DNA of 64,000 nt from Gammaproteobacteria bacterium (GTDB lineage Bacteria > Pseudomonadota > Gammaproteobacteria > UBA4575): positions 192,001-256,000 of the forward strand of contig CBDCUI010000009.1 of assembly GCA_965222615.1 (NCBI GenBank). The letters run 5' to 3'. The translations under genes and the position numbers were made by a program. Below the pieces are notes generated by a model that saw only the letters and a program-made list of their open reading frames with translations, made no database searches and had not been told where the DNA came from. Numbering within the stretch: position 1 is the first letter of the stretch; the number at the start of each line of letters is the position of its first letter. This document shows, one piece after another, positions 52,620 through 64,000 of the stretch.

Positions 52620-55600
52620 ATGAGAACGAAGGATTTCGTATCTCATTTGCTACTATTAATAAGTATCTATGCATTAGCCGTATCTAGTGCAAATTCCAGT
52701 GACTCAGCTGAAGTAGCAAATTGGCAAACTACATTCAATAGCGTCAATTCATCGACATATGTTGAGGATAGGTTGTGGACACCTGAAATATATTCACGTC
52801 TGGCAACCGCTGATACTCATAGCAATAACAATTCTCGAAGTAGTCAAAGCAAATATCACAAGAAAAGAAAAAAACGTAAGCAAGCAGATCTGTCTTTACG
52901 CAAGAGTGTAAACAATCCACGTCCGGATGTTGGAGAGTTTGTTACCTTTACGATTACTGTAAAAAACGATGGCCCGGCAGGCACTGATTACGCAGTGGCT
53001 GATGTAATTCCAAGAGGCTATACCCACATCACTAATATCAGTAAAGGTGGTCATCTGGAAGGTAATGTAATTACTTGGAAACATAATTGGATCGATGCAG
53101 GTGTAAAGCAAACTTTTAGTTTTCGTGCATTGGTTAAAGAGAAAACTGGAGCAAAAGACGAATATAAAAATGTTGCGCAAATCATAAAAAGCAATCGGCC
53201 TGATCCCGACAGCAAACCAAATAATGATGATGGCGATCAAAGTGAAGATGATGAGGACTTCGCAATTGTTGAACCTCAATCCAATGTGGCAGATTTTTCA
53301 TTACATAAAAATGTTGATAACAGAACACCGAATATAGGAGATGTAGTAACTTTTACGATTAGCGTTAAAAACTATGGCCCAGCAGGAGGAGATTATGATG
53401 TACAAGATTTGCTTCCTCCTGGGTTTAGTAAAATCTCGTACATCAACAGGGGAGGTATTCTAAAAGGCAATAAAATTACCTGGAAAGGGCAGTGGATAGG
53501 CAAAGGTGAAACACAGGTATTTAAATTTCGTGCAACCGTAAATTCTCCCAAATGTGTAGCTGATGAATATAAAAATATTGCACAAATCATAAAAAGTAAC
53601 CGACCCGATCCCGACAGTACGCCGAACAACGACGATGGTGATCAAAGTGAAGATGATGAAGACAGTGTTGTTGTTATTCCAAACACCGATATCTGCGATA
53701 CGAATAATGCGGATTTATCGTTACAAAAGACGGTTGATAATAAAACCCCAAATATTGGTGATGTAGTTACTTTTAAAATTAAAGTCAAAAATGATGGTCC
53801 GTCTGGTGCTGATTATCATCTTGAAGATGTAGTTCCCAGCGGTTTCAGCAATATTACTGGTATTACGAGGAATGGTGCACTTGCTGGTAATACGATTACA
53901 TGGAAAAGGCAATGGATAGACAAAGGTGAAATACAGGTATTTAAATTTCATACAACCGTAAATTCACCAAAATGTGTAGCCAGTGAATATAAAAATGTTG
54001 CACAAATCATAAAAAGCAATCGACCTGATCCCGACAGTACGCCGAACAACGACGATGGCGATCAAAGCGAAGATGATGAAGACAGTGCAGCTGTTATTCC
54101 AAATACTAATATCTGTGACATCGGTACTTCTGACTTATCACTAAACAAAACAGTTAACAATGCCACCCCGAATGTAGGTGACACCGTGACGTTTAGTATT
54201 GTGGTGAGCAATGCCGGCCCGGATGCTGCCACCAATGTAGGGGTGAGTGACATTGTACCGGTGGGCTACAGCAACATCAGTAATGTCAGCAATGGCGGCA
54301 GTGTCAATGGCAACAATATTAGTTGGAATGTTGCCAGCATTGCTAGTGGAGCGAGTGTCGCATTGAGCTTTAGTGCAGAAGTGCTCGCACCCACCGGTGT
54401 GGCCGATGAATACAAGAACACGGCCCAAGTCAGTGCTAGTGATCAAAGTGATCCGGACAGTACGCCGAACAATGATGATGGCGATCAAAGTGAAGATGAT
54501 GAAGACAGTGCCAGTGTAATCCCAGGCGGTAGTGCAGGCGTTGCCGATCTGATGTTAACCAAGAGTGTCGACAATGCCACCCCGAATGTAGGCGAGGTGG
54601 TGACGTTTAGTATTGTGGTGAGCAATGCCGGACCCGATGCCGCCACCAATGTAGGGGTGAGTGACATTGTACCGGTGGGCTACAGCAACATCAGTAATGT
54701 CAGCAATGGCGGCAGTGTCAATGGCAACAATATTAGTTGGAGTGTTGCCAGCATTGCTAGTGGAGCGAGTGTCGCATTGAGCTTTACCGCAGAAGTGCTC
54801 GCACCCACCGGTGTGGCCGATGAATACAAGAACACGGCCCAAGCCAGTGCTAGTGATCAAAGTGATCCGGACAGTACACCGAACAATGATGATGGCGATC
54901 AAAGTGAAGATGATGAAGACAGTGCCAGTGTAATCCCAGGCGGTAGTGCAGGCGTTGCCGATCTGATGTTAACCAAGAGTGTCGACAATGCCACCCCGAA
55001 TGTAGGCGAGGTGGTGACGTTTAGTATTGTGGTGAGCAATGCCGGACCGGATGCTGCCACCAATGTAGGGGTGAGTGACATTGTACCGGTGGGCTACAGC
55101 AACATCAGTAATGTCAGCAATGGCGGCAGTGTCAATGGCAACAATATTAGTTGGAGTGTTGCCAGCATTGCTAGTGGAGCCAGTGTCGCGTTGAGCTTTA
55201 GTGCAGAAGTACTCGCCCCAACGGGTGTAGCCGATGAATACAAGAACACCGCCCAAGTTAGCGCCAGTGATCAAAGTGATCCGGATAGTACGCCGAACAA
55301 TGATGATGGCGATCAAAGTGAAGATGATGAAGACAGTGCCAGTGTAATCCCAGGCGGTAGTGCAGGCGTTGCCGATCTGATGTTAACCAAGAGTGTCGAC
55401 AATGCCACCCCGAATGTAGGCGAGGTGGTGACGTTTAGTATTGTGGTGAGCAATGCCGGACCGGATGCTGCCACCAATGTAGGGGTGAGTGACATTGTAC
55501 CGGTGGGCTACAGCAACATCAGTAATGTCAGCAATGGCGGCAGTGTCAATGGCAACAATATTAGTTGGAATGTTGCCAGCATTGCTAGTGGAGCGAGTGT

Positions 55601-58600
55601 CGCATTGAGCTTTACCGCAGAAGTGCTCGCACCCACCGGTGTGGCCGATGAATACAAGAACACGGCCCAAGTTAGTGCTAGTGATCAAAGTGATCCGGAC
55701 AGTACACCGAACAATGATGATGGCGATCAAAGCGAAGATGATGAAGACAGTGCACTGGTGGTTCCACAAATCGATCCAACCGGTCGTTTTTATTGTGAAG
55801 ATACCGGAGAGATCTTAACCGGTGGTTCGGTTGCATTTAGCTCATCAAACGGTGGTTCTACAACTGATTTCTTAGATGGTACTACAGGTGAATATCGTTC
55901 TGACTTTATCGCGCCTGCGGCGGGTACGATGTTTACCATGGCGATTACACCGCCACCAGGAACCATTTTAAGTGTGACTAGACCTGTAAACCCAACTCCC
56001 ATTGCGCCCGCAGGAGCAGTTCCGGTAAATCTGGGTAGTACTGAACAGGGTAATACTGGATTCTTAGTTGATTTCAGTGCAGCTGCAAATACACCTTGGT
56101 ATGACACATTTACGATCGATCCGGGTGATCCCATTATTATCAATAACAATATACCCGTAACGAATTGTGCAACCTCATCTATTTTGTTACGCAAAACTGC
56201 AGCTGAGCAAAGTGTAACAATTGGAAGTCTTGTTCAATATGAGATTAATGCACGTGTGTTACTGCCATTACCGCTTACGGATATCGATATTGTCGATAAC
56301 ATTCCTGGCGGGTTCGTATATGTTGCAGACTCTGCAATTATTATTCGCGCCGGTGCGGATGGTGAGTTAAATACTATTGACGATGTAGTAACGAATGCCA
56401 TAGTTACTGGAACCGATCCAATTACCTTTGAAGACATTGATTTTGCAGCTGGTGAAGAGCTAATTATTCGTTATTTCTTGCAAGTTACTTCGGGTGTGGT
56501 TGAAGGGCAATATGAAAATACTGCTCAATGCTTTAATCAAGGTAACTTAGCGGTTTGTAACCAAGCGGTTGCTTCAGTAGAAGTATCACAAGACCCGATT
56601 CTGGAGAAAACGACCATTATCGGCAAAGTTTGGGATGACATCGATCAAGATGGTTGGCAAGACAATGCCAATGCAAGCAATATCGTTGTGAAACATTTAA
56701 ATGATGATAGTGAAGGAATAAATATTGAATCGATACCTGGACGTTCTGATCAGTTGGATCCTATTGAATTACACCAGGAAAATGTAACAGTCGCTATGTC
56801 AAATGATCATAACAATCCGGTTGTACTGACTTCGGCTGAAGGCACACGATTGGTTATCGATCAAACCGGTAAAGTCACTGCAGAACACACCGGCATGAAA
56901 GCCAAGGGCTTAACTGGGCAAGATTTGCAAGTGGCCAGCGTAATTGATAACGGCAAAATGCACCTTACTATTACAAACCATGGACTACATGAAGCCGGAA
57001 TACCTGGTGTTCGTATTGCCAGCGTTGAGGGTTTATTAGTTGAAACGGATGAATATGGTCGCTATCACTTAGCCGATATCGATGGTGGCCGTTGGGAACG
57101 CGGACGCAATTTTATACTTAAAGTAGATCCTCTAACTCTACCTGAAGGCGCTGAATTTACTACAGAAAATCCCCGTGTCTTACGTATAACACAAGGATTG
57201 ATGAGTAAAATCAACTTTGGCGTGAAATTACCCAAGCAGGATGCCGTATATAAACTGGAAATGCAGGAGCAACATAAGGCCTCTAGACACGAAATCGTCA
57301 AAACGCGTGAACTCGATGGAATTGTAGACCCAATTCATTTTGCGTCGGGTAAAGCCGATATCACGGATACATATATAGCTAAATTAGAGCGTGCCATTAG
57401 TAGTCTTTCCGACAAGGACAATGTGCGTATACACGTAGTTGGCCATACCGATACACAATTGTTAACCCCGGCAACTGCTGCGAAGTTTAAAGATAACTAC
57501 GGGCTCTCCATAGCAAGGGCAGAAGAAGTGGCCGCCAAATTGCGTTCTGAGCTGGGACTTAAAGTAACTTCGGTAGAAATTTCAGGCCGAGGCCCAGATG
57601 AACCTGTTGCCAGTAATGACAACCCAGAAGGCATGGCTAAAAACCGCAGAGTAGAGACGAGTTTACTTTTTGATGAAAGAATATCGAAAAAAATGGTGGC
57701 GACCAGCTATGAAAAAATCGCCGCGGGGCGTAGTGATGTATTACTACCTAAAGGTGGACGAGTTTGGGTGGTGGAAGATCCCACCAAGATTGATCTAAGA
57801 CTGGACGTTATTTTCCATAGTGCGGTTGCAGTTGATAAAGGTGGGAAAGTCTCTGCTGTAAGCTTTAATAACTACAGCAATTACTTGGCTTACATTGATC
57901 GCTGGGAAGTAACGATTTATAACGACTCCGATGTTGATTTAATTTATCCAATTGCAAAGGTCTCAGGTGAGCGCAGCAATTTCTTGGCAATTCATGAACT
58001 GCAACTAGATGCCAGCACAAAACTAGACGATTCACTGTGGTACGTTTTGCGCGTACACGATTCCAAAGGACGCATGGATGAAACCGTGCCCAAACATCTT
58101 GCAGTCGTAGATGCGGAGCTTGCAGGAATGGAGCCAATATCAGAAGAGCAGCAAAGAGAGTTAAGTAGAAGCATTGTTGGTAAAAACAGCCTGAGTAATC
58201 AAAGAATCCCCATACATGGGTCTCGTGTGCGCTTAAATGGCAGTGGTATTGATGCTGGTTATATATTGAGAATTAACGATCTCAGCATTCCAATTTCAGA
58301 AAAAGGCACATTTGCGACAGAACAACACTTACCAATCGGTACGCATAGCTTTGAGGTGAATGTAAGTGATGGCATTGACGATACAACCAGCAGAAATTTG
58401 AACGTAGATGTAAAAGGTAAGCATTTCTTCATGGTTGGTTTGGCTAATTTAACGGTTGGTGAAAATAGTTTATCGGGAAGTGTTGAACCTCTGGGCGAAG
58501 ACGATCACTTTGATGAAGATGTATGGATAGATGGCCGAGTTGCGTTCTATTTGAAAGGCAAAGTGAAAGGCAAGTATTTAATTACTGCACAACTGGATAC

Positions 58601-61142
58601 TACTGAAGATGAATTGCGTAATTTGGGGGATCGTTTAGATGATGAGGATCCACGTAGATTGTTCCGCAAGCTGGATCCTGATAAGTACTATGCCGTATAT
58701 GGTGACGACTCCACTACGATAGATGATACCGATAGCCAGGGAATGTTTTATCTGCGCGTCGATTGGGATAAAAGTATGGCATTGTGGGGCAATTACAATA
58801 CCGATATCACCGGTACCGAGTTTTCGCAATACAACCGCAGCTTATATGGTGCCAAGCTTGAACACCGAAATGTCGACACCACTGAATTTGGTGATCACAA
58901 ACATGAAGTGCATGCATTTGCATCTCAAGCACAAAACGTTGCCGCGCACAATGAATTTGTTGCCACAGGTGGCTCCCTTTATTACTTGCGCGATACCGAT
59001 ATTGTTCAGGGTTCTGAAAAAGTTTGGGTGGAAGTTCGTAATCGTGATACCGAACAAGTTACAGAAAACATCGCGTTAAAACACGGCCAAGATTACGACA
59101 TCGATTATTTGCAAGGACGTATTATTTTAACGCGACCGCTTTCCCAGGTAGATATCGGTAATGGTCCAAACATTATTAAAGACCAACCTTTAGAAGGTGA
59201 TGATGTATTCCTATTAGTGGATTACGAATACAACCCAGAATCATTTGATGCAGACGACGTAACTGCCGGACTACGTGGCAAAGCCTGGTTAAATCAATAC
59301 ATTGGTATTGGTGGTACCTATATCAATGAAGAACGCAATGGCGAAGACTATGAGTTAAAAGGTGCTGATGTAACTCTGAAGGCAGGCAAGGGCACTTACA
59401 TCAAACTTGAATATGCAGAAAGTGATGCCAACCAAACTAACCAAAACTTTATTTCAAATAATGGTGGAATTAACTTTAACAACAAGACCAATACACTAGA
59501 CGAAAACAGTGATGGTGAAGCCTTAGGGATAGAAGCACGAGTTAATTTTGCAGAGATGACAGGCAATAAGCAGCAAGGTTATCTCATGGCGTGGTGGAAA
59601 GATCGTGATGCAAACTTTTCATCTACCGCGCGTCTCGATGATGGTATTGAAACTACAGATACTGGTTTAGAAGGGGTGTGGCAGGCCACCGATAACTTGA
59701 AGTTAAGTACAAGAATTACCAATTTAGACAAACGCGGTGAAGGTGAGTTTACTGCTGCAAGCATACAAGGTGATTACAGCCTGACCGATCGTTTAACCCT
59801 GGGCGCAGAAATTCGTTACGAAGACGAAGAAGATGATACGGGTCTATTTGAAGATACCGAAGCAACATTGGGTGGCCTCGCGTTGCGCTATAAGTTAACA
59901 CCAGACACCGAAGTCTATGGCAGTGCACAAGCTGTGATTGCGGACGATAACGATTATGAAAATAATGCCGGTGTAACCATTGGTGCCAGTCGTCAACTTA
60001 ATACAAGATTGGCATTAAAAGGCGAAGTTACGACAGGTGATCGTGGTGAAGCGATTGTACTTGGCGGTGAATATGCAGTAACACCGAATACCAATATTAG
60101 TATTAATGCTGGGTTTGGTGAAGGTGCAGCAAGTCAGATCGGTACGAATTATGTCACTGCAAATGGAATGGAGCTTTATGGCAGTTATGCAGTGGATCCT
60201 GATCGCACCGATAGTGGTTCCAATATGTTCACGTTTGGTACCAAACGCAGATTCCAGAACGGTTTAACAATATTTACTGAGAGTCAATTTGGCGAAGGTG
60301 ACGAAGAACAAAGTATCGGCCGTACCTACGGCTTGGATTATGATCTGACTGAACAATGGCGACTTAGTGCATCAATACAAAGTAATGATTTAGATCGTGA
60401 TTTAGGTGATATTGATAGACGTGCAGCTACCGTAGGCGCTAAGTTTAGAAATAAAACGGTTCAGTTTGGTAGTGTGCTTGAATATCGTGAAGATGATGAT
60501 CGCTCAACCGACTTGGATAACACTCAATGGCTTACCAGTAACACCATTGAATGGCAGAAAAGTGAAAACTTGAGGTTGCTGGGTAAACTAGATTTGTCTA
60601 CGACTCATAGCGATAGCAATAAAGGCGATGAAGCAAAATATGCCGAGATCGATCTTGGTTTTGCTTATCGACCTGCAACATATGATCGCTGGAATATTTT
60701 AGGCAAATATACCTTCTTGTATGACTTAGGTAGCAGTGGCCAGGATGATGTGACACCAGAAGAGCGTGCGCACATCTTCTCGCTAGAAGGCATTTATGAC
60801 CTTAATCAAAAATGGGAGCTTGGCGCTAAGTATGCACATCGCGAAGGCGATCTGCGTTTAACACGTGGATCCGGCCCATGGTTTGAATCGGGCGCACATT
60901 TAGCTGTAATTCGATCTCGATACCACTTCATTAAGAAATGGGATGCCTTGTTTGAATACCGTTGGTTGGAAAGTGAAAGCGAAGATGATGAAAAACATGG
61001 CGCTTTAGTCGCGGCATACAGGCACCTAGGCAAACACTTTAAAGTCGGTGCTGGGTATAACTTTACTGACTTTAATGACGACCTTACGGACAACGATTAT
61101 GATAGCGATGGTTGGTTTATAGATATAGTAGGTAAGTACTAA
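52620..61142 (+). CDS. giant surface protein: signal peptide, 7-8 DUF11-type Ig-like repeats, OmpA-like peptidoglycan-binding domain, large C-terminal outer-membrane beta-barrel region
   Basis: DLSLxK...PNVG..VTF...N.GP...D..P.G...YKN.AQ repeats; OmpA motif GHTD...LSIARA...NRRVE; amphipathic strands ending GYNFTDF...VGKY. Confidence 0.85.
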   Translation: MRTKDFVSHLLLLISIYALAVSSANSSDSAEVANWQTTFNSVNSSTYVEDRLWTPEIYSRLATADTHSNNNSRSSQSKYHKKRKKRKQADLSLRKSVNNPRPDVGEFVTFTITVKNDGPAGTDYAVADVIPRGYTHITNISKGGHLEGNVITWKHNWIDAGVKQTFSFRALVKEKTGAKDEYKNVAQIIKSNRPDPDSKPNNDDGDQSEDDEDFAIVEPQSNVADFSLHKNVDNRTPNIGDVVTFTISVKNYGPAGGDYDVQDLLPPGFSKISYINRGGILKGNKITWKGQWIGKGETQVFKFRATVNSPKCVADEYKNIAQIIKSNRPDPDSTPNNDDGDQSEDDEDSVVVIPNTDICDTNNADLSLQKTVDNKTPNIGDVVTFKIKVKNDGPSGADYHLEDVVPSGFSNITGITRNGALAGNTITWKRQWIDKGEIQVFKFHTTVNSPKCVASEYKNVAQIIKSNRPDPDSTPNNDDGDQSEDDEDSAAVIPNTNICDIGTSDLSLNKTVNNATPNVGDTVTFSIVVSNAGPDAATNVGVSDIVPVGYSNISNVSNGGSVNGNNISWNVASIASGASVALSFSAEVLAPTGVADEYKNTAQVSASDQSDPDSTPNNDDGDQSEDDEDSASVIPGGSAGVADLMLTKSVDNATPNVGEVVTFSIVVSNAGPDAATNVGVSDIVPVGYSNISNVSNGGSVNGNNISWSVASIASGASVALSFTAEVLAPTGVADEYKNTAQASASDQSDPDSTPNNDDGDQSEDDEDSASVIPGGSAGVADLMLTKSVDNATPNVGEVVTFSIVVSNAGPDAATNVGVSDIVPVGYSNISNVSNGGSVNGNNISWSVASIASGASVALSFSAEVLAPTGVADEYKNTAQVSASDQSDPDSTPNNDDGDQSEDDEDSASVIPGGSAGVADLMLTKSVDNATPNVGEVVTFSIVVSNAGPDAATNVGVSDIVPVGYSNISNVSNGGSVNGNNISWNVASIASGASVALSFTAEVLAPTGVADEYKNTAQVSASDQSDPDSTPNNDDGDQSEDDEDSALVVPQIDPTGRFYCEDTGEILTGGSVAFSSSNGGSTTDFLDGTTGEYRSDFIAPAAGTMFTMAITPPPGTILSVTRPVNPTPIAPAGAVPVNLGSTEQGNTGFLVDFSAAANTPWYDTFTIDPGDPIIINNNIPVTNCATSSILLRKTAAEQSVTIGSLVQYEINARVLLPLPLTDIDIVDNIPGGFVYVADSAIIIRAGADGELNTIDDVVTNAIVTGTDPITFEDIDFAAGEELIIRYFLQVTSGVVEGQYENTAQCFNQGNLAVCNQAVASVEVSQDPILEKTTIIGKVWDDIDQDGWQDNANASNIVVKHLNDDSEGINIESIPGRSDQLDPIELHQENVTVAMSNDHNNPVVLTSAEGTRLVIDQTGKVTAEHTGMKAKGLTGQDLQVASVIDNGKMHLTITNHGLHEAGIPGVRIASVEGLLVETDEYGRYHLADIDGGRWERGRNFILKVDPLTLPEGAEFTTENPRVLRITQGLMSKINFGVKLPKQDAVYKLEMQEQHKASRHEIVKTRELDGIVDPIHFASGKADITDTYIAKLERAISSLSDKDNVRIHVVGHTDTQLLTPATAAKFKDNYGLSIARAEEVAAKLRSELGLKVTSVEISGRGPDEPVASNDNPEGMAKNRRVETSLLFDERISKKMVATSYEKIAAGRSDVLLPKGGRVWVVEDPTKIDLRLDVIFHSAVAVDKGGKVSAVSFNNYSNYLAYIDRWEVTIYNDSDVDLIYPIAKVSGERSNFLAIHELQLDASTKLDDSLWYVLRVHDSKGRMDETVPKHLAVVDAELAGMEPISEEQQRELSRSIVGKNSLSNQRIPIHGSRVRLNGSGIDAGYILRINDLSIPISEKGTFATEQHLPIGTHSFEVNVSDGIDDTTSRNLNVDVKGKHFFMVGLANLTVGENSLSGSVEPLGEDDHFDEDVWIDGRVAFYLKGKVKGKYLITAQLDTTEDELRNLGDRLDDEDPRRLFRKLDPDKYYAVYGDDSTTIDDTDSQGMFYLRVDWDKSMALWGNYNTDITGTEFSQYNRSLYGAKLEHRNVDTTEFGDHKHEVHAFASQAQNVAAHNEFVATGGSLYYLRDTDIVQGSEKVWVEVRNRDTEQVTENIALKHGQDYDIDYLQGRIILTRPLSQVDIGNGPNIIKDQPLEGDDVFLLVDYEYNPESFDADDVTAGLRGKAWLNQYIGIGGTYINEERNGEDYELKGADVTLKAGKGTYIKLEYAESDANQTNQNFISNNGGINFNNKTNTLDENSDGEALGIEARVNFAEMTGNKQQGYLMAWWKDRDANFSSTARLDDGIETTDTGLEGVWQATDNLKLSTRITNLDKRGEGEFTAASIQGDYSLTDRLTLGAEIRYEDEEDDTGLFEDTEATLGGLALRYKLTPDTEVYGSAQAVIADDNDYENNAGVTIGASRQLNTRLALKGEVTTGDRGEAIVLGGEYAVTPNTNISINAGFGEGAASQIGTNYVTANGMELYGSYAVDPDRTDSGSNMFTFGTKRRFQNGLTIFTESQFGEGDEEQSIGRTYGLDYDLTEQWRLSASIQSNDLDRDLGDIDRRAATVGAKFRNKTVQFGSVLEYREDDDRSTDLDNTQWLTSNTIEWQKSENLRLLGKLDLSTTHSDSNKGDEAKYAEIDLGFAYRPATYDRWNILGKYTFLYDLGSSGQDDVTPEERAHIFSLEGIYDLNQKWELGAKYAHREGDLRLTRGSGPWFESGAHLAVIRSRYHFIKKWDALFEYRWLESESEDDEKHGALVAAYRHLGKHFKVGAGYNFTDFNDDLTDNDYDSDGWFIDIVGKY
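52884..55765 (+). repeat. seven intragenic tandem domain repeats; the last four are near-identical 414-bp units
   Basis: Unit starts at 52884, 53289, 53709, 54129, 54543, 54957 and 55371. Confidence 0.92.
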
Positions 61143-61160
61143 AATTTAATTGTTATCAAA

Positions 61161-61589
61161 ATGGCTGAAAACAGAATTCTAAAGAGCCAAGAAGTCCTGT
61201 CACAGGCGGCAAACTATGCGCCAATTATTGAAACCTTTGGGATGAAGCTTTCATATAATGAGGATAATGAAGCAGTATGGACATTACCTTTTACTAAAAG
61301 CCTAACCAATGGCGTTACCATCCATGGAGGCGCTATCGCCACGCTTTTAGATTGTGCTGGTTGGTTTACGCTATCGCAGTATTACGAAAACTGGATAGCA
61401 ACCGTTGACTTCAATACCAATTTAATAACCTATGCCAAAGATGAGACCCTTGTTGCTACCGGGCATGTCGTCAAGATTGGAAAAAGAATATCCAACTCAA
61501 CAATGGAAGTTGTCTCAGAAAAAGACGGCAGAATCATTGCAACAGGTACCGGAACATACGCATTGACTTCAGTGCCATTTCCTATCTAG
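61161..61589 (+). CDS. PaaI family thioesterase
   Basis: N...IHGGAIATLLD hot-dog motif. Confidence 0.9.
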   Translation: MAENRILKSQEVLSQAANYAPIIETFGMKLSYNEDNEAVWTLPFTKSLTNGVTIHGGAIATLLDCAGWFTLSQYYENWIATVDFNTNLITYAKDETLVATGHVVKIGKRISNSTMEVVSEKDGRIIATGTGTYALTSVPFPI

Positions 61590-61787
61590 TGATACTTGGA
61601 ATATTTTGAGTAAATATACATTCGTTAAGCTGGTGTTTTAGTAGTTTTTTAATCCCAACTTCTGCCTAATTGTTGGGTAATGATCTTAATACCCATATAA
61701 TGTCCGCTAACGACCCAATGTATGGACACCTCCAAGCTAAGCAATTAGTTTGTGTGGTGTTAGAAACACAAAAGAAGGAGTCCATAC

Positions 61788-62831
61788 ATGAAACATCTAA
61801 ACATAGTTGGCGTTGATTTAGCAAAAAACGTAATCCAAGTTTGCGTGATGCGCGCGCAGCGACAAGAAGTAATCAATCGTTCCTATAGTCGTACTAAATT
61901 TGCAGTATTTCTCGTTAAACAACAGCGCAGTGTCATCGCCTTTGAAGCATGTGCCAGTAGTCATTATTGGGCACGAAAAGCCAAAGCATTGGGGCATACC
62001 ATCAAAATCATTCCGGCAAAAGCGATCACACCGTATCGTCAAGGCCATAAAACCGATATCAATGATGCCCGCGCGATCGCTGAAGCGGCGAGCCGTCCCC
62101 ACCTACTTGAAGCCCCATTAAAGAGTGTTGAACAACAAGGCTTGCAAGCCGTACAACGTTCAAGAGAGCTTTTGGTACAAGAGCGAACCGGTCTATCCAA
62201 CCACATCCGTGGCATATTGATGGAATTTGGCATCGTCATTCCTAAAGGCTTTGCCGCCTTGCATCAACAGATACCCGAGGTACTAGAAGATGGGGAGAAC
62301 GAGCTACCCGATCTATATCGCCCGACGTTACAGATATTGTACGAACGCTTAGTGCAACTCAAAACAACCATCACGATACTTGATCAACAAATTGCCGCCC
62401 TCATCAAACAACATCCAGGTTGCGAAACGCTCATGAAGATAGAAGGTGTGGGCCCAATCAGTGCGATATTACTGTATGCCAGCCTTGGTAGTGGCGATGC
62501 GTTTAGCCAAGGTAGACAATATGCGGCGTACTTAGGGTTAACGCCCAAGCAATACAGCAGTGGCGGGAAAACGAATCTTATTGGGATAAGTAAAAAGGTT
62601 GCGAATAAACGTTTGCGCTCCGTACTCATTCAAGGAGCACGTGCTTATGTGCACAAGCTCAAAGAACCGAAAAGCCAAAAAGATCGCTGGCTGCTGGCAC
62701 TGATTGAACGTGCCGGCTATGGCAAGGCGGCGGTAGCGTTAGCCAACAAAAATGTGCGCACCGCATGGGCCATGCTGACCCGGGGGACAACGTACAATAA
62801 ACAACATACAACCACGATGCACATTGCATAA
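61788..62831 (+). CDS. IS110 family transposase / bridge recombinase
   Basis: GVDLAKN, FEAC, KTDINDA (DEDD RuvC-like); LGLTPKQYSSGG, ALANK. Confidence 0.95.
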   Translation: MKHLNIVGVDLAKNVIQVCVMRAQRQEVINRSYSRTKFAVFLVKQQRSVIAFEACASSHYWARKAKALGHTIKIIPAKAITPYRQGHKTDINDARAIAEAASRPHLLEAPLKSVEQQGLQAVQRSRELLVQERTGLSNHIRGILMEFGIVIPKGFAALHQQIPEVLEDGENELPDLYRPTLQILYERLVQLKTTITILDQQIAALIKQHPGCETLMKIEGVGPISAILLYASLGSGDAFSQGRQYAAYLGLTPKQYSSGGKTNLIGISKKVANKRLRSVLIQGARAYVHKLKEPKSQKDRWLLALIERAGYGKAAVALANKNVRTAWAMLTRGTTYNKQHTTTMHIA

Positions 62832-62849
62832 AAACAAAACCAAGACACT

Positions 62850-63045
62850 ACGTTACATAAAAGTGTAGAAGAGGTTAGGCAAGTAGACCTAGGTAAAGAA
62901 TAAAGAGATTCGCTTCGATGAAACCTGCTCCGCTTTGAGGATAAATAGAATCCATCGACCCAATGAGGCATCGAAGTGCGCATACATACAGGGCTAGAAG
63001 ATCGCAACTTCACGAAAAAGCCGAATATACATCTGCGTCTTTTTC
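62850..63045 (+). ncRNA. bridge/seek RNA of the first IS1111 element (ends approximate)
   Basis: Stem CTTCGATG/CATCGAAG encloses TCCGCTTTG and CGACCCA, which match the two flanks. The second loop has CATACAT and ATATACA, which match the element ends. Confidence 0.8.
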
Positions 63046-63106
63046 TTTATCAATTTCTGTTTGCTAAACTGGCGGTGTCCATATACAAAGCGGACAAATA
63101 TAAATT

Positions 63107-63304
63107 ATGCTTTGTGATTATATACTTTGGTTTCTTATGGCCGCTTTTCTGATCGTGGTTTTAAAGCACAGTTATGTTTTATATATGTATTTAGTCAGAA
63201 AAGAAAGCATATCTATGACAGATAGTGCATCTAAGGTCTATTCGCTATTACTGTTATTAGCGGTTGCCCTGAGCTTGATTTGCCAATTAAACATTATTGA
63301 TTAA
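63107..63304 (+). CDS. small two-TM hypothetical protein, cassette-like
   Basis: 65 aa with two hydrophobic segments; starts 10 bp after one palindromic site and its stop codon abuts the next. Confidence 0.45.
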   Translation: MLCDYILWFLMAAFLIVVLKHSYVLYMYLVRKESISMTDSASKVYSLLLLLAVALSLICQLNIID

Positions 63305-63359
63305 ATGTCCGTATATGGCCTCCCTCCGTTTGCAAGCAAAATATTCAATGACAAAGTAG

Positions 63360-63535
63360 AGTCGACTGCACACGTATATTCGGCCTCTATTGATAGCAAG
63401 CGCTATTGATAGCAAGCGTTGATGCTGGGCCAGGATGGTGTATTCGCACCTAAGCACCCAATCGCTATTACGTACTCGAAGTACCTGGACATTCACGGGT
63501 TACGCTTAGGTCGGTTCGACCGGTTTGCCATCTAA
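63360..63535 (-). ncRNA. bridge/seek RNA of the second IS1111 element (ends approximate)
   Basis: Stem CCTAAGC/GCTTAGG encloses AATGTCC and AATAGCG; downstream loop contains ATATACG matching the element's right end plus core. Confidence 0.7.
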
Positions 63536-63607
63536 TAAATTACTTTGCAATCGTGGTAGATAATCCTCTTAAGTGTAAGTACATGTAATTTCGTTAATTG
63601 TTTTATT

Positions 63608-64000
63608 TCACATAAGCGCAAAGTTCGGATCATATTCACTTTCATCTCGCAACATTGCAAATGCCATACGCACGGTTTTATTCGCCAGTGCGACAGCGGC
63701 CACATTCGTATGTTTGGTTTTAGAAAGATGCGTGACCCACTGACTCAATCGATCCTCTTTATGTTTCGCTTGCGAGACGACAGCCCTTGCTCCGTGAATG
63801 AGTAAGGTGCGCAGATAGGCATCGCCGCGTTTACTGATTTCCAGTAAACGCTCTTTATTGCCTGAACTGTGTTGTCTGGGGGTTAAGCCTAAGGCTGCCG
63901 CCATCTGGCGACTGCTCTTGTATTGTTTGGCATCGCCTACCGTGGCAATCAATGCTGTGGCCACCATCGGCCCGACCCCTCGTAGCTGTTGTAGACGCTT
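63608..64000 (-). CDS. IS110 family transposase, C-terminal part (start outside the window)
   Basis: GVGPMVATA, LGLTPRQHSSG, ISKRGDAYLRTLLIHGAR, ALANK. Confidence 0.92.
   Translation of the reverse strand, partial: KRLQQLRGVGPMVATALIATVGDAKQYKSSRQMAAALGLTPRQHSSGNKERLLEISKRGDAYLRTLLIHGARAVVSQAKHKEDRLSQWVTHLSKTKHTNVAAVALANKTVRMAFAMLRDESEYDPNFALM

Follow-up and report, generated by a model that had tools for sequence, protein, structure and literature searches.

The 64,000-nucleotide (nt) stretch of DNA analysed here (the window; contig CBDCUI010000009.1 of the Gammaproteobacteria bacterium assembly GCA_965222615.1, positions 192,001 to 256,000) carries an IS1111-type insertion sequence (IS) whose 3' non-coding end very probably encodes a two-loop RNA that reads both the target and the joined ends of the element itself and guides its transposase. 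Coordinates are those of the window unless a contig is named, C9 being the contig that holds the window and C7 another contig of the same genome. The evidence consists of the anatomy of the element, its copy number, the empty sites in the genome, the covariation of the RNA structure and the covariation of the guide segments with the flanks in related elements. An RNA guide had been proposed for this element from the letters of the window (the original prediction), and it is supported by the covariation of the structure as well as by that of the guides with the flanks and ends of homologues.

The assignment of the element to a family follows from its transposase and its ends. The protein matches PF01548 (DEDD_Tnp_IS110, E 7e-18) and PF02371 (Transposase_20, E 4e-18) in Pfam, it scores 312 bits against a cut-off of 140 with the NCBIfam model NF033542, named 'IS110 family RNA-guided transposase', and its relatives among solved structures are the transposases of ISCro4 (E 1.5e-11) and IS621 (E 2.2e-11). 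Residues D10, D90 and D93 of the N-terminal domain and S258 face the same residue in the ISCro4 alignment; E53, also in the N-terminal domain, was taken from the translation alone and is unmatched in that alignment. The roles of these catalytic residues (D, E, D, D and the serine) are those described in PMC11208158, and the G--P----SG motif defined in PMC11187229 is present as G250-L-x-P-xxxx-S258-G259 (GLTPKQYSSG). The DEDD/RuvC-like N-terminal domain, the C-terminal Transposase_20 domain and the catalytic residues expected of the IS110 family are thus all found. According to PMC11187229 and PMC11208160 the IS1111 and IS110 groups are split by subterminal repeats and a long non-coding region, and the latter gives IS1111 its inverted repeats of 7-17 bp (PMC11208160). 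In the studied element the repeats are 10 bp long and exact, inset by 3 nt from the left and 2 nt from the right end, and the non-coding parts measure 70 nt upstream of the gene (61718-61787) and 256 nt downstream of it (62832-63087). A transposase of 347 amino acids (aa), where 330-350 are expected, and site-specific insertion complete the picture of the IS1111 group. Membership in the IS110 group proper (IS621 type) was rejected, as the predicted RNA is encoded 3' of the gene, not in the left end, and repeats of 10 bp are found instead of 2-3 bp. Judged by its sequence, the element is a member of the IS1111 group of the IS110 family, since it shows every sequence-level mark of that group and failed at none that could be tested; the original prediction had named the same family, and the two Pfam domains, NF033542, the repeats and the 3' non-coding end bear this out.

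The left boundary of the element reads ...TGTCCGCTAACGACC-CA|ATGTATGGACACC... (left junction TGTCCGCTAACGACC-CA|ATGTATGG at 61701-61725) and the right boundary ...GGTGTCCATATA|CA-AAGCGGACA (right junction CCATATA-CA-AAGCGGACA at 63079-63096). The span of 1370 bp counts one of the two CA, either of which could belong to the element. The range originally predicted, 61698-63096, does enclose the element but takes in the target flanks, the element proper being 61718-63087. The source genome (9 contigs, 3.10 Mb, 39% G+C) contains five full copies at 100% identity and a sixth that is cut by a contig end, each of them with flanks of its own that follow a common pattern, (A)ATGnCnGCTnACGACC-CA to the left of the element and CA-AAGCGGACAttt to its right, from which two copies deviate by one mismatch per side; in pattern, all six share the flanks xACGACC-CA / CA-AAGCGGACA. 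When the flanks are rejoined, the resulting 17-mer ACGACCCAAAGCGGACA is found uninterrupted and exact three times in the genome (C7:819035, C9:80521, C9:82181) and at 17 places if up to three mismatches are allowed, and the uninterrupted target sites hold a single CA. Because the 17-mer exists uninterrupted, the flanks are target rather than element and one CA is shared, so the claim that removal of the element restores a real site holds true. The element inserts without duplication beyond this shared core. It targets an imperfect palindrome, ATGnCnGCT-N10-AGCGGACAT, of which the loop (nACGACCCAA) and the right arm form the site; this palindrome occurs in small clusters spread across three contigs. 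The element is intact and recently mobile, and DNA contigs from runs of related strains, in which the same element stands beside other flanks (loose ends at 61699-61713 and 63096), suggest that it is still moving in the population. A DNA search of the element against plasmid records gave no match, and the element was not found in 40 related genomes, where the search yielded nothing beyond two weak matches, each about 70 nt long. RecA of the source genome is at most 79% identical to the RecA genes on records of the plasmid collection, a Legionella adelaidensis record coming closest.

The structure of the RNA was derived by comparison. Relatives were gathered by the transposase at 17 loci in named genome assemblies and 80 in metagenome contigs; their transposases are 26 to 74% identical to that of the studied element over all loci and 61 to 73% within the close clade, and most of them keep the 3' non-coding region. 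The window and 55 distinct homologous stretches (with anchor matches, enough flank and two motif filters passed) were aligned, and RNAalifold predicted 29 pairs on these 56 sequences, 18 of them with compensatory changes. The trimmed alignment, which comprises 40 distinct sequences, shows pairing in 98.5% of 1037 cells, and 14 of 26 pairs have changed on both sides, compared with 5.3 +/- 1.4 in shuffles, none of which reached as high a number in 500 attempts; when partners were slid by 1-3 columns as a control, pairing fell to 30-50%. The predicted RNA carries segments for both strands of the target, with the match to the top strand 5', which is the order of IS1111 seekRNAs: TCCGCUUUG lies on the 5' strand and CGACCCA on the 3' strand of the first internal loop, CAUACAU and AUAUACA in the same way on the two strands of the second. 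Every string quoted in the original prediction lies where it was placed, including the stem of CTTCGATG (62913-20) with CATCGAAG (62969-76) and the guide-like words TCCGCTTTG (62929-37), ATCGACCCA (62954-62), CATACAT (62981-87) and ATATACA (63025-31). A covariance model with homologues, proposed there as a check, was built from the 40 sequences of the trimmed alignment; this model, R1, finds the RNA of the window at 126.7 bits. It also matches RNAs 3' of far more distant transposases (E 3e-9 to 1e-4) at five loci from a Photobacterium damselae plasmid, a Klebsiella quasipneumoniae plasmid and three metagenome-assembled genome (MAG) or metagenome contigs, the transposase identities being 48% for L117, 43% for L116, 40% for L022, 35% for L096 and 34% for L025.

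The check named as decisive beforehand was whether the guides covary with the flanks of homologous elements, and they do. The four loop segments were taken from 69 RNA copies added to the alignment, with the element ends set by the conserved subterminal repeats. For the right target, 62 copies with at least 10 nt of right flank gave 53 unique guide/flank pairs, seven copies being left out because the contig ended or the element end was not found. Compared position by position, the flank agrees with the reverse-complemented loop segment at 0.70-1.0 for positions 1-9, and position 10 has no signal (0.23 vs 0.22). Over positions 3-9 a match is seen in 310 of 371 cells, against 245.8 +/- 6.1 with swapped partners (0/2000 shuffles). 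Eleven pairs match at 9/9, 22 at 8/9, 15 at 7/9 and 5 at fewer positions. Naturally retargeted pairs that match at 9/9 are TCTGCTATG with CATAGCAGA, TCCGAAACG with CGTTTCGGA and TCCGAGTTG with CAACTCGGA, and the covariation runs through the non-palindromic TTTG part, positions 1-5. The left target was compared in 49 copies with full flank, 39 of them unique, and matches in 290 of 351 cells, against 265.8 +/- 4.9 with swapped partners (0/2000). Here positions -6 to -2 (GACCC) are invariant, position -7 covaries (C/C 26, T/T 11, C/A 2) and position -1 matches in 34 of the 39. Positions -9 and -8 do no better than swapped partners in these 39 pairs, and for this reason we count the left-target guide as 7 nt; from the 8/9 match that had been claimed for ATCGACCCA, the last seven positions (62956-62) appear to act as a guide and the first two are without signal.

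The donor guides, which correspond to the element's own ends, covary as well. The loops of L027 and L083, whose right end is CCAGATA, carry TAGATAC, and a third element with CCAGATA keeps ATATAC; UAUACUU in L037 and L079 pairs with the left end AGGTATG via two G-U pairs. CATACAT and ATATACA stand on opposite strands of the second loop and covary with the ends in these four elements. In the five distant elements found with R1 the loop strands match their own unrelated flanks over 7-9 nt, at times with a register shift of one. Going by about 50 naturally retargeted relatives, the guide positions that matter are nine on the right and seven on the left of the target, and seven on each donor side.

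Several other explanations of these matches have to be considered. One would argue that the words in the window are a product of chance, as the 7-mers are short and arise at 0.7-2% each: when the 229-nt non-coding stretch was shuffled 20000 times with its dinucleotides preserved, the single words appeared with chances of 0.00035, 0.007, 0.012 and 0.021. However, at least two words appeared jointly in only 0.0004 (0.04%) of those shuffles and all four in none, and within two internal loops that covary the words occupy opposite strands, so that chance is refuted by the shuffle and covariation tests together and deserves practically no belief. It could also be that the matches are features of the DNA, the non-coding end holding a piece captured from the palindromic target along with copies of the element's own ends as protein-binding sites, without any RNA guide. 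TCCGCT equals part of the left arm too, the target being a palindrome, and the donor-type words do look like subterminal repeats. Such an origin is nevertheless extremely unlikely: the compensatory changes in 14 of 26 pairs, not equalled in 500 shuffles, keep helices paired, which is a property of RNA, the covariation with the flank reaches the non-palindromic TTTG, and such RNA co-purifies in relatives of the family, as described in PMC11187229.

We consider it very improbable, too, that the element is an ordinary IS1111-type IS whose target is set mainly by the hairpin of the repeat, recognised by protein, with the RNA match being secondary. In its favour, three different elements (the studied IS, a second IS1111-type IS and an IS30-family IS, both described below) sit in one palindrome family, and a 'sequence-structure dual-match' is reported for an IS110 element in 10.64898/2026.03.19.712850. 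Against this, the right-target guide and the right flank change together, as in the 9/9 pairs with CATAGCAGA, CGTTTCGGA and CAACTCGGA, and the distant relatives sit in unrelated, non-palindromic-looking sites yet match their own loops.

A number of observations weigh against an RNA that guides the transposase, and they are gathered here. As many as 20 of the 53 homologous right-target pairs reach only 7/9 or fewer, and 6 nt of TCCGCTTTG would also fit the left arm because the target is palindromic. The homologous insertions occupy different places and are still not phylogenetically independent, and because of this kinship the shuffle counts overstate the significance. The right-donor guide of the element itself lacks the two bases that would pair with the core: it reads CATACAT-AC, and because AC comes next it cannot pair with the CA core, so that the complementarity of CATACAT to the left end stands as predicted and the extension over the core does not. 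In 52 homologues with a recognisable left end the same two bases are CA in 24 and CT in 24. The four guides also fail to specify the second base of the core in a consistent way. The 133-nt RNA folded singly is no more stable than shuffles (z -0.68), and longer stretches give z -0.94 and -2.0; the case for a structured RNA is therefore a comparative one. No Rfam 15 family matches within 61000-64000 at E up to 1, where the sole match is a chance snoRNA at 63570-63710. Finally, no circle junction was found in the DNA contigs of four runs, and contigs cannot show rare forms; the lone joint there that goes back, from 63104 to 61699, lies beyond the element's ends and is consistent with copies that stand side by side in an array. 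Three joints (63104 to 61699, 63096 to 63304 and 61733 to 62547) were rejected as excision products and are read as neighbouring copies or other arrangements; stretches that no contig covered were given no weight.

If the transposase is RNA-guided, as we hold very probable, the element could work as follows. The 3' non-coding end would give rise to an RNA some 130 nt long that folds into two stem-loops. In its target loop TCCGCUUUG would pair with the top strand of CA-AAGCGGA and CGACCCA with the bottom strand of CGACC-CA, and in its donor loop CAUACAU would pair with the top strand of the left end and AUAUACA with the right end's bottom strand together with CA. Together with this RNA the DEDD/serine transposase would bring the junction of an excised circle, CCATATA-CA-ATGTATGG, to the palindrome loop ATGnCnGCT-nACGACCCAA-AGCGGACAT, and recombination would take place at the shared C(A) of the target CGACC-CA-AAGCGGA. 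The bridging of two DNAs by the RNA is to be expected from the homology to IS1111 elements that have been tested (PMC11187229) and to IS621 (PMC11208160, PMC11208158), and the IS1111 seekRNA is reported to co-purify with the transposase and to be required for transposition (PMC11187229). Such a pair of recombinase and guide may also be reprogrammable.

Most transcription would start at a promoter that forms anew when the ends join in the circle, TTGCTA being followed after 17 nt by TACAAT. The -35 half is kept as TTGCT(A/T) in many homologues, no plus-strand sigma-70-type promoter was found within the integrated element, and PMC12288879 describes junction promoters in this family, ISEc11 included. 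The guide RNA may be cut out of the 3' part of the transposase transcript. The hairpin at the left end would stop the translation of read-through transcripts, and since the 5' arm of that hairpin would be missing from transcripts begun at the junction promoter, translation would be limited to the excised form.

The two bases of the core may differ in their inheritance. The element in the window has CA at both junctions, as the original prediction had it, but within the clade only C is invariant. In 24 of 45 unique homologous insertions the second core base is equal at both junctions, and in the other 21 it is different (the loci concerned in this asymmetry are L014, L043, L047 and L051-L070). 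In all discordant insertions the left base is clade-typical, T in 14 of one subclade and A in seven others, and the right base varies. A strict pattern for uninterrupted targets found none in homologous loci; eight uninterrupted hairpins on contigs of the T-type subclade, chosen by eye and hence subjectively from 50 matches to a loose pattern, carry CA in four cases, CG in three and CT in one, which is like the right junctions and unlike the left ones. In the T-type subclade each of the four guides agrees with the junctions as integrated (CT left, CA right) and not with one common core. As the left base is clade-typical and the right one resembles the uninterrupted targets, the left base would travel with the element and the right base would come from the target. 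Two-strand exchange over a 2-nt core would be expected to give mixed outcomes, whereas the observed pattern fits a 1-nt overlap or the transfer of one strand. The top-strand cut 3' of the core described for IS621 (PMC11208158) would predict the mirror-image polarity, and single-strand excision and insertion are argued for IS110 elements in 10.1101/2025.10.25.684509 and 10.64898/2026.08.31.748434. We put forward only tentatively, as a possibility about which we have more doubt than conviction, that C alone is truly shared by donor and target and that the next base is asymmetrically inherited, as would fit a 1-nt overlap or single-strand transfer. The signal leans largely on one subclade, the element of the window is uninformative in this respect, and we regard the asymmetry as a lead.

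Compared with known systems, the element is new among the relatives found and its kind, the seekRNA or bridge RNA of IS1111 elements, has been known since 2024. The nearest transposase relatives found are 73% identical in metagenome contigs and 71% in named MAG assemblies, and against plasmid records the identity is at most 47.6%. Bridge RNAs are predicted at the right end of 93% of the IS1111 elements in ISfinder according to PMC11208160, and seekRNAs were demonstrated experimentally in four IS1111 members according to PMC11187229. These four, ISEc11, ISKpn4, ISPst6 and ISPa11 (Siddiquee et al. 2024, PMC11187229), are described as being like the studied element in their transposases of 330-350 aa, the GL-P----S/TG motif, the subterminal repeats, the 3' non-coding region, the order of the guides and the site-specific insertion without longer duplication. 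Set against their descriptions rather than aligned, the studied element has another sequence and another target; target matches are described for those elements (PMC11187229), and the studied one also shows a readable second loop for its own ends. IS621 (Durrant et al. 2024, PMC11208160; Hiraizumi et al. 2024, PMC11208158; PDB 8wt6) is described as similar in its bispecific two-loop RNA, with a left and a right guide per loop on opposite strands, its DEDD and serine recombinase and its short shared core; its junction promoter has a putative counterpart in the studied element. IS621 differs in these accounts by an RNA 5' of the gene, a reversed guide order, a CT core with a nearly invariant T and repeats of 2-3 bp, whereas the studied element has the predicted RNA 3' of the gene, a core C(A) with an invariant C and 10-bp repeats; the protein likeness to IS621 is limited to the C-terminal domain (E 2e-11). 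ISPpu9 and ISPpu10 of Pseudomonas putida are, in the account of PMC12288879, likewise multicopy in a repeated extragenic palindrome, ISPpu9 having a small RNA gene 3' of the transposase, comparable to the predicted one of the studied element, and ISPpu10 a hybrid junction promoter, comparable to its putative one. The same account places both in the IS110 group, without subterminal repeats, and describes for ISPpu9 a promoter of its own along with an antisense RNA; the studied element showed neither.

The genome also contains an integron integrase gene (intI) at C9:397324-398262 (TIGR02249, 490 bits). Post and Hall in 2009 reportedly described an IS1111-attC group, relatives of IS1111 that sit in a repeated, imperfectly palindromic recombination site. 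The studied element differs from that group, as its target is not of the attC type of its own genome's integron. The repeats beside intI (L119, L123) are about 0.6-1.3 kb apart, end in ...CTTGTTAG/GTTAT and probably form a chromosomal cassette array; they are unrelated to the target of the IS. An attC identity of the target was rejected, as those repeats are unlike the target palindrome and the copies of the target are scattered on three contigs.

Table 1. Positions in the window of the insertion sequence, its gene, its predicted RNA and the target halves
Feature	Position	Strand	Basis
Insertion sequence, 1370 bp counting one CA of two	61718..63087	+	Five full copies at 100% identity and one cut copy
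Left target half: left arm of palindrome and loop (TGTCCGCT AACGACC), plus the CA common to the right junction	61701..61717	+	Variable flanks around the 100%-identical IS; uninterrupted copies exist
Right target half: right palindrome arm AAGCGGACA, preceded by CA	63086..63096	+	Flanks of the copies and uninterrupted sites
Left subterminal inverted repeat TATGGACACC	61721..61730	+	Equals the reverse complement of 63074-63083 without mismatch
Right subterminal inverted repeat GGTGTCCATA	63074..63083	+	Exact partner of 61721-30
Left-end hairpin; the first ten bases pair with Shine-Dalgarno and AUG	61718..61790	+	Minimum free energy -27.9 kcal/mol, z -2.85; recurs in homologues
Transposase gene, 347 aa, the only gene of the element	61788..62831	+	Translation, Pfam, NCBIfam, structure relatives
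Predicted guide RNA gene (seekRNA/bridge RNA), 133 nt, two stem-loops each with an internal loop	62908..63040	+	Model R1; structure covariation
Predicted target-binding stem-loop: 62912-19/62970-77 (8 bp), CCU 62924-26/AGG 62966-68 (3 bp), small capping hairpin	62912..62977	+	Helix 1: 6/8 pairs changed on both sides
Right-target guide TCCGCTTTG	62929..62937	+	Complementary to top strand of CA+AAGCGGA; flank covariation
Left-target guide CGACCCA, 7 nt	62956..62962	+	Same as top strand, left flank plus CA; position -7 covaries
Predicted donor-binding stem-loop: 62978-80/63034-36, 62992-95/63019-22, inner hairpin	62978..63036	+	Covariation in helices 4-6
Right-donor guide CATACAT	62981..62987	+	Complementary to left end ATGTATG; next two bases AC without core pairing
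Left-donor guide ATATACA	63025..63031	+	Same as right end ATATA plus CA
TTGCTA, -35 half of putative circle-junction promoter	63061..63066	+	17 nt on, TA (63084-85), CA and AT (61718-19) would form TACAAT

The surroundings of the element hold further mobile DNA. The region 63097-64000, and its continuation beyond the window to C9:256760, contains another, different IS1111-type element on the minus strand, about 50 bp downstream of the studied one and with a transposase fragment at 63608-64000; it has four copies in the genome at 98-100% identity. Its predicted guide RNA is found by R1 on the minus strand at 63364-63515 (E about 1e-8), and its loop segments AATGTCC and AATAGCG correspond to the flanks of this second element, GGACATT and AATAGC. 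It sits in the loop variant ATTGGCCGAA of the same palindrome family. Outside the window, at C9:256770-258060 and C9:266400-266750, an IS30-family element is found in the loop of the same palindrome (...GCTTACGAC|...|CCAAAGCGGACA), its insertion point being at most 2 bases away from that of the IS1111-type element. The palindrome thus serves as a landing site to three elements that are unrelated or related distantly. Just outside the window, at C9:258242-258336, a remnant of the studied element's right end survives in two pieces, one of about 30 nt and one of about 37 nt, with CTAAAACGAAAATAAT after them; this last sequence recurs about 250 nt upstream, which looks like a local rearrangement or duplication. 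Upstream of the element, an open reading frame of 2840 aa at 52620-61142 contains many near-identical repeats of about 120 aa (…PNNDDGDQSEDDED…) and looks like the repeat-adhesin kind of surface protein. As a by-product of a motif scan, a long tandem array with a period of 333 nt and about 30 units was seen at C7:198606-208662.

The understanding of how such elements work is unchanged by this one. What it adds is one well-documented natural pair of a recombinase and a predicted guide RNA of the IS1111 type, with exact ends, empty sites in the same genome and the model R1, and as no Rfam 15 model finds the RNA, this is useful for the mining of bridge recombinases and for annotation. The asymmetric second base of the core, if true, could bear on the question whether one strand or two are transferred.

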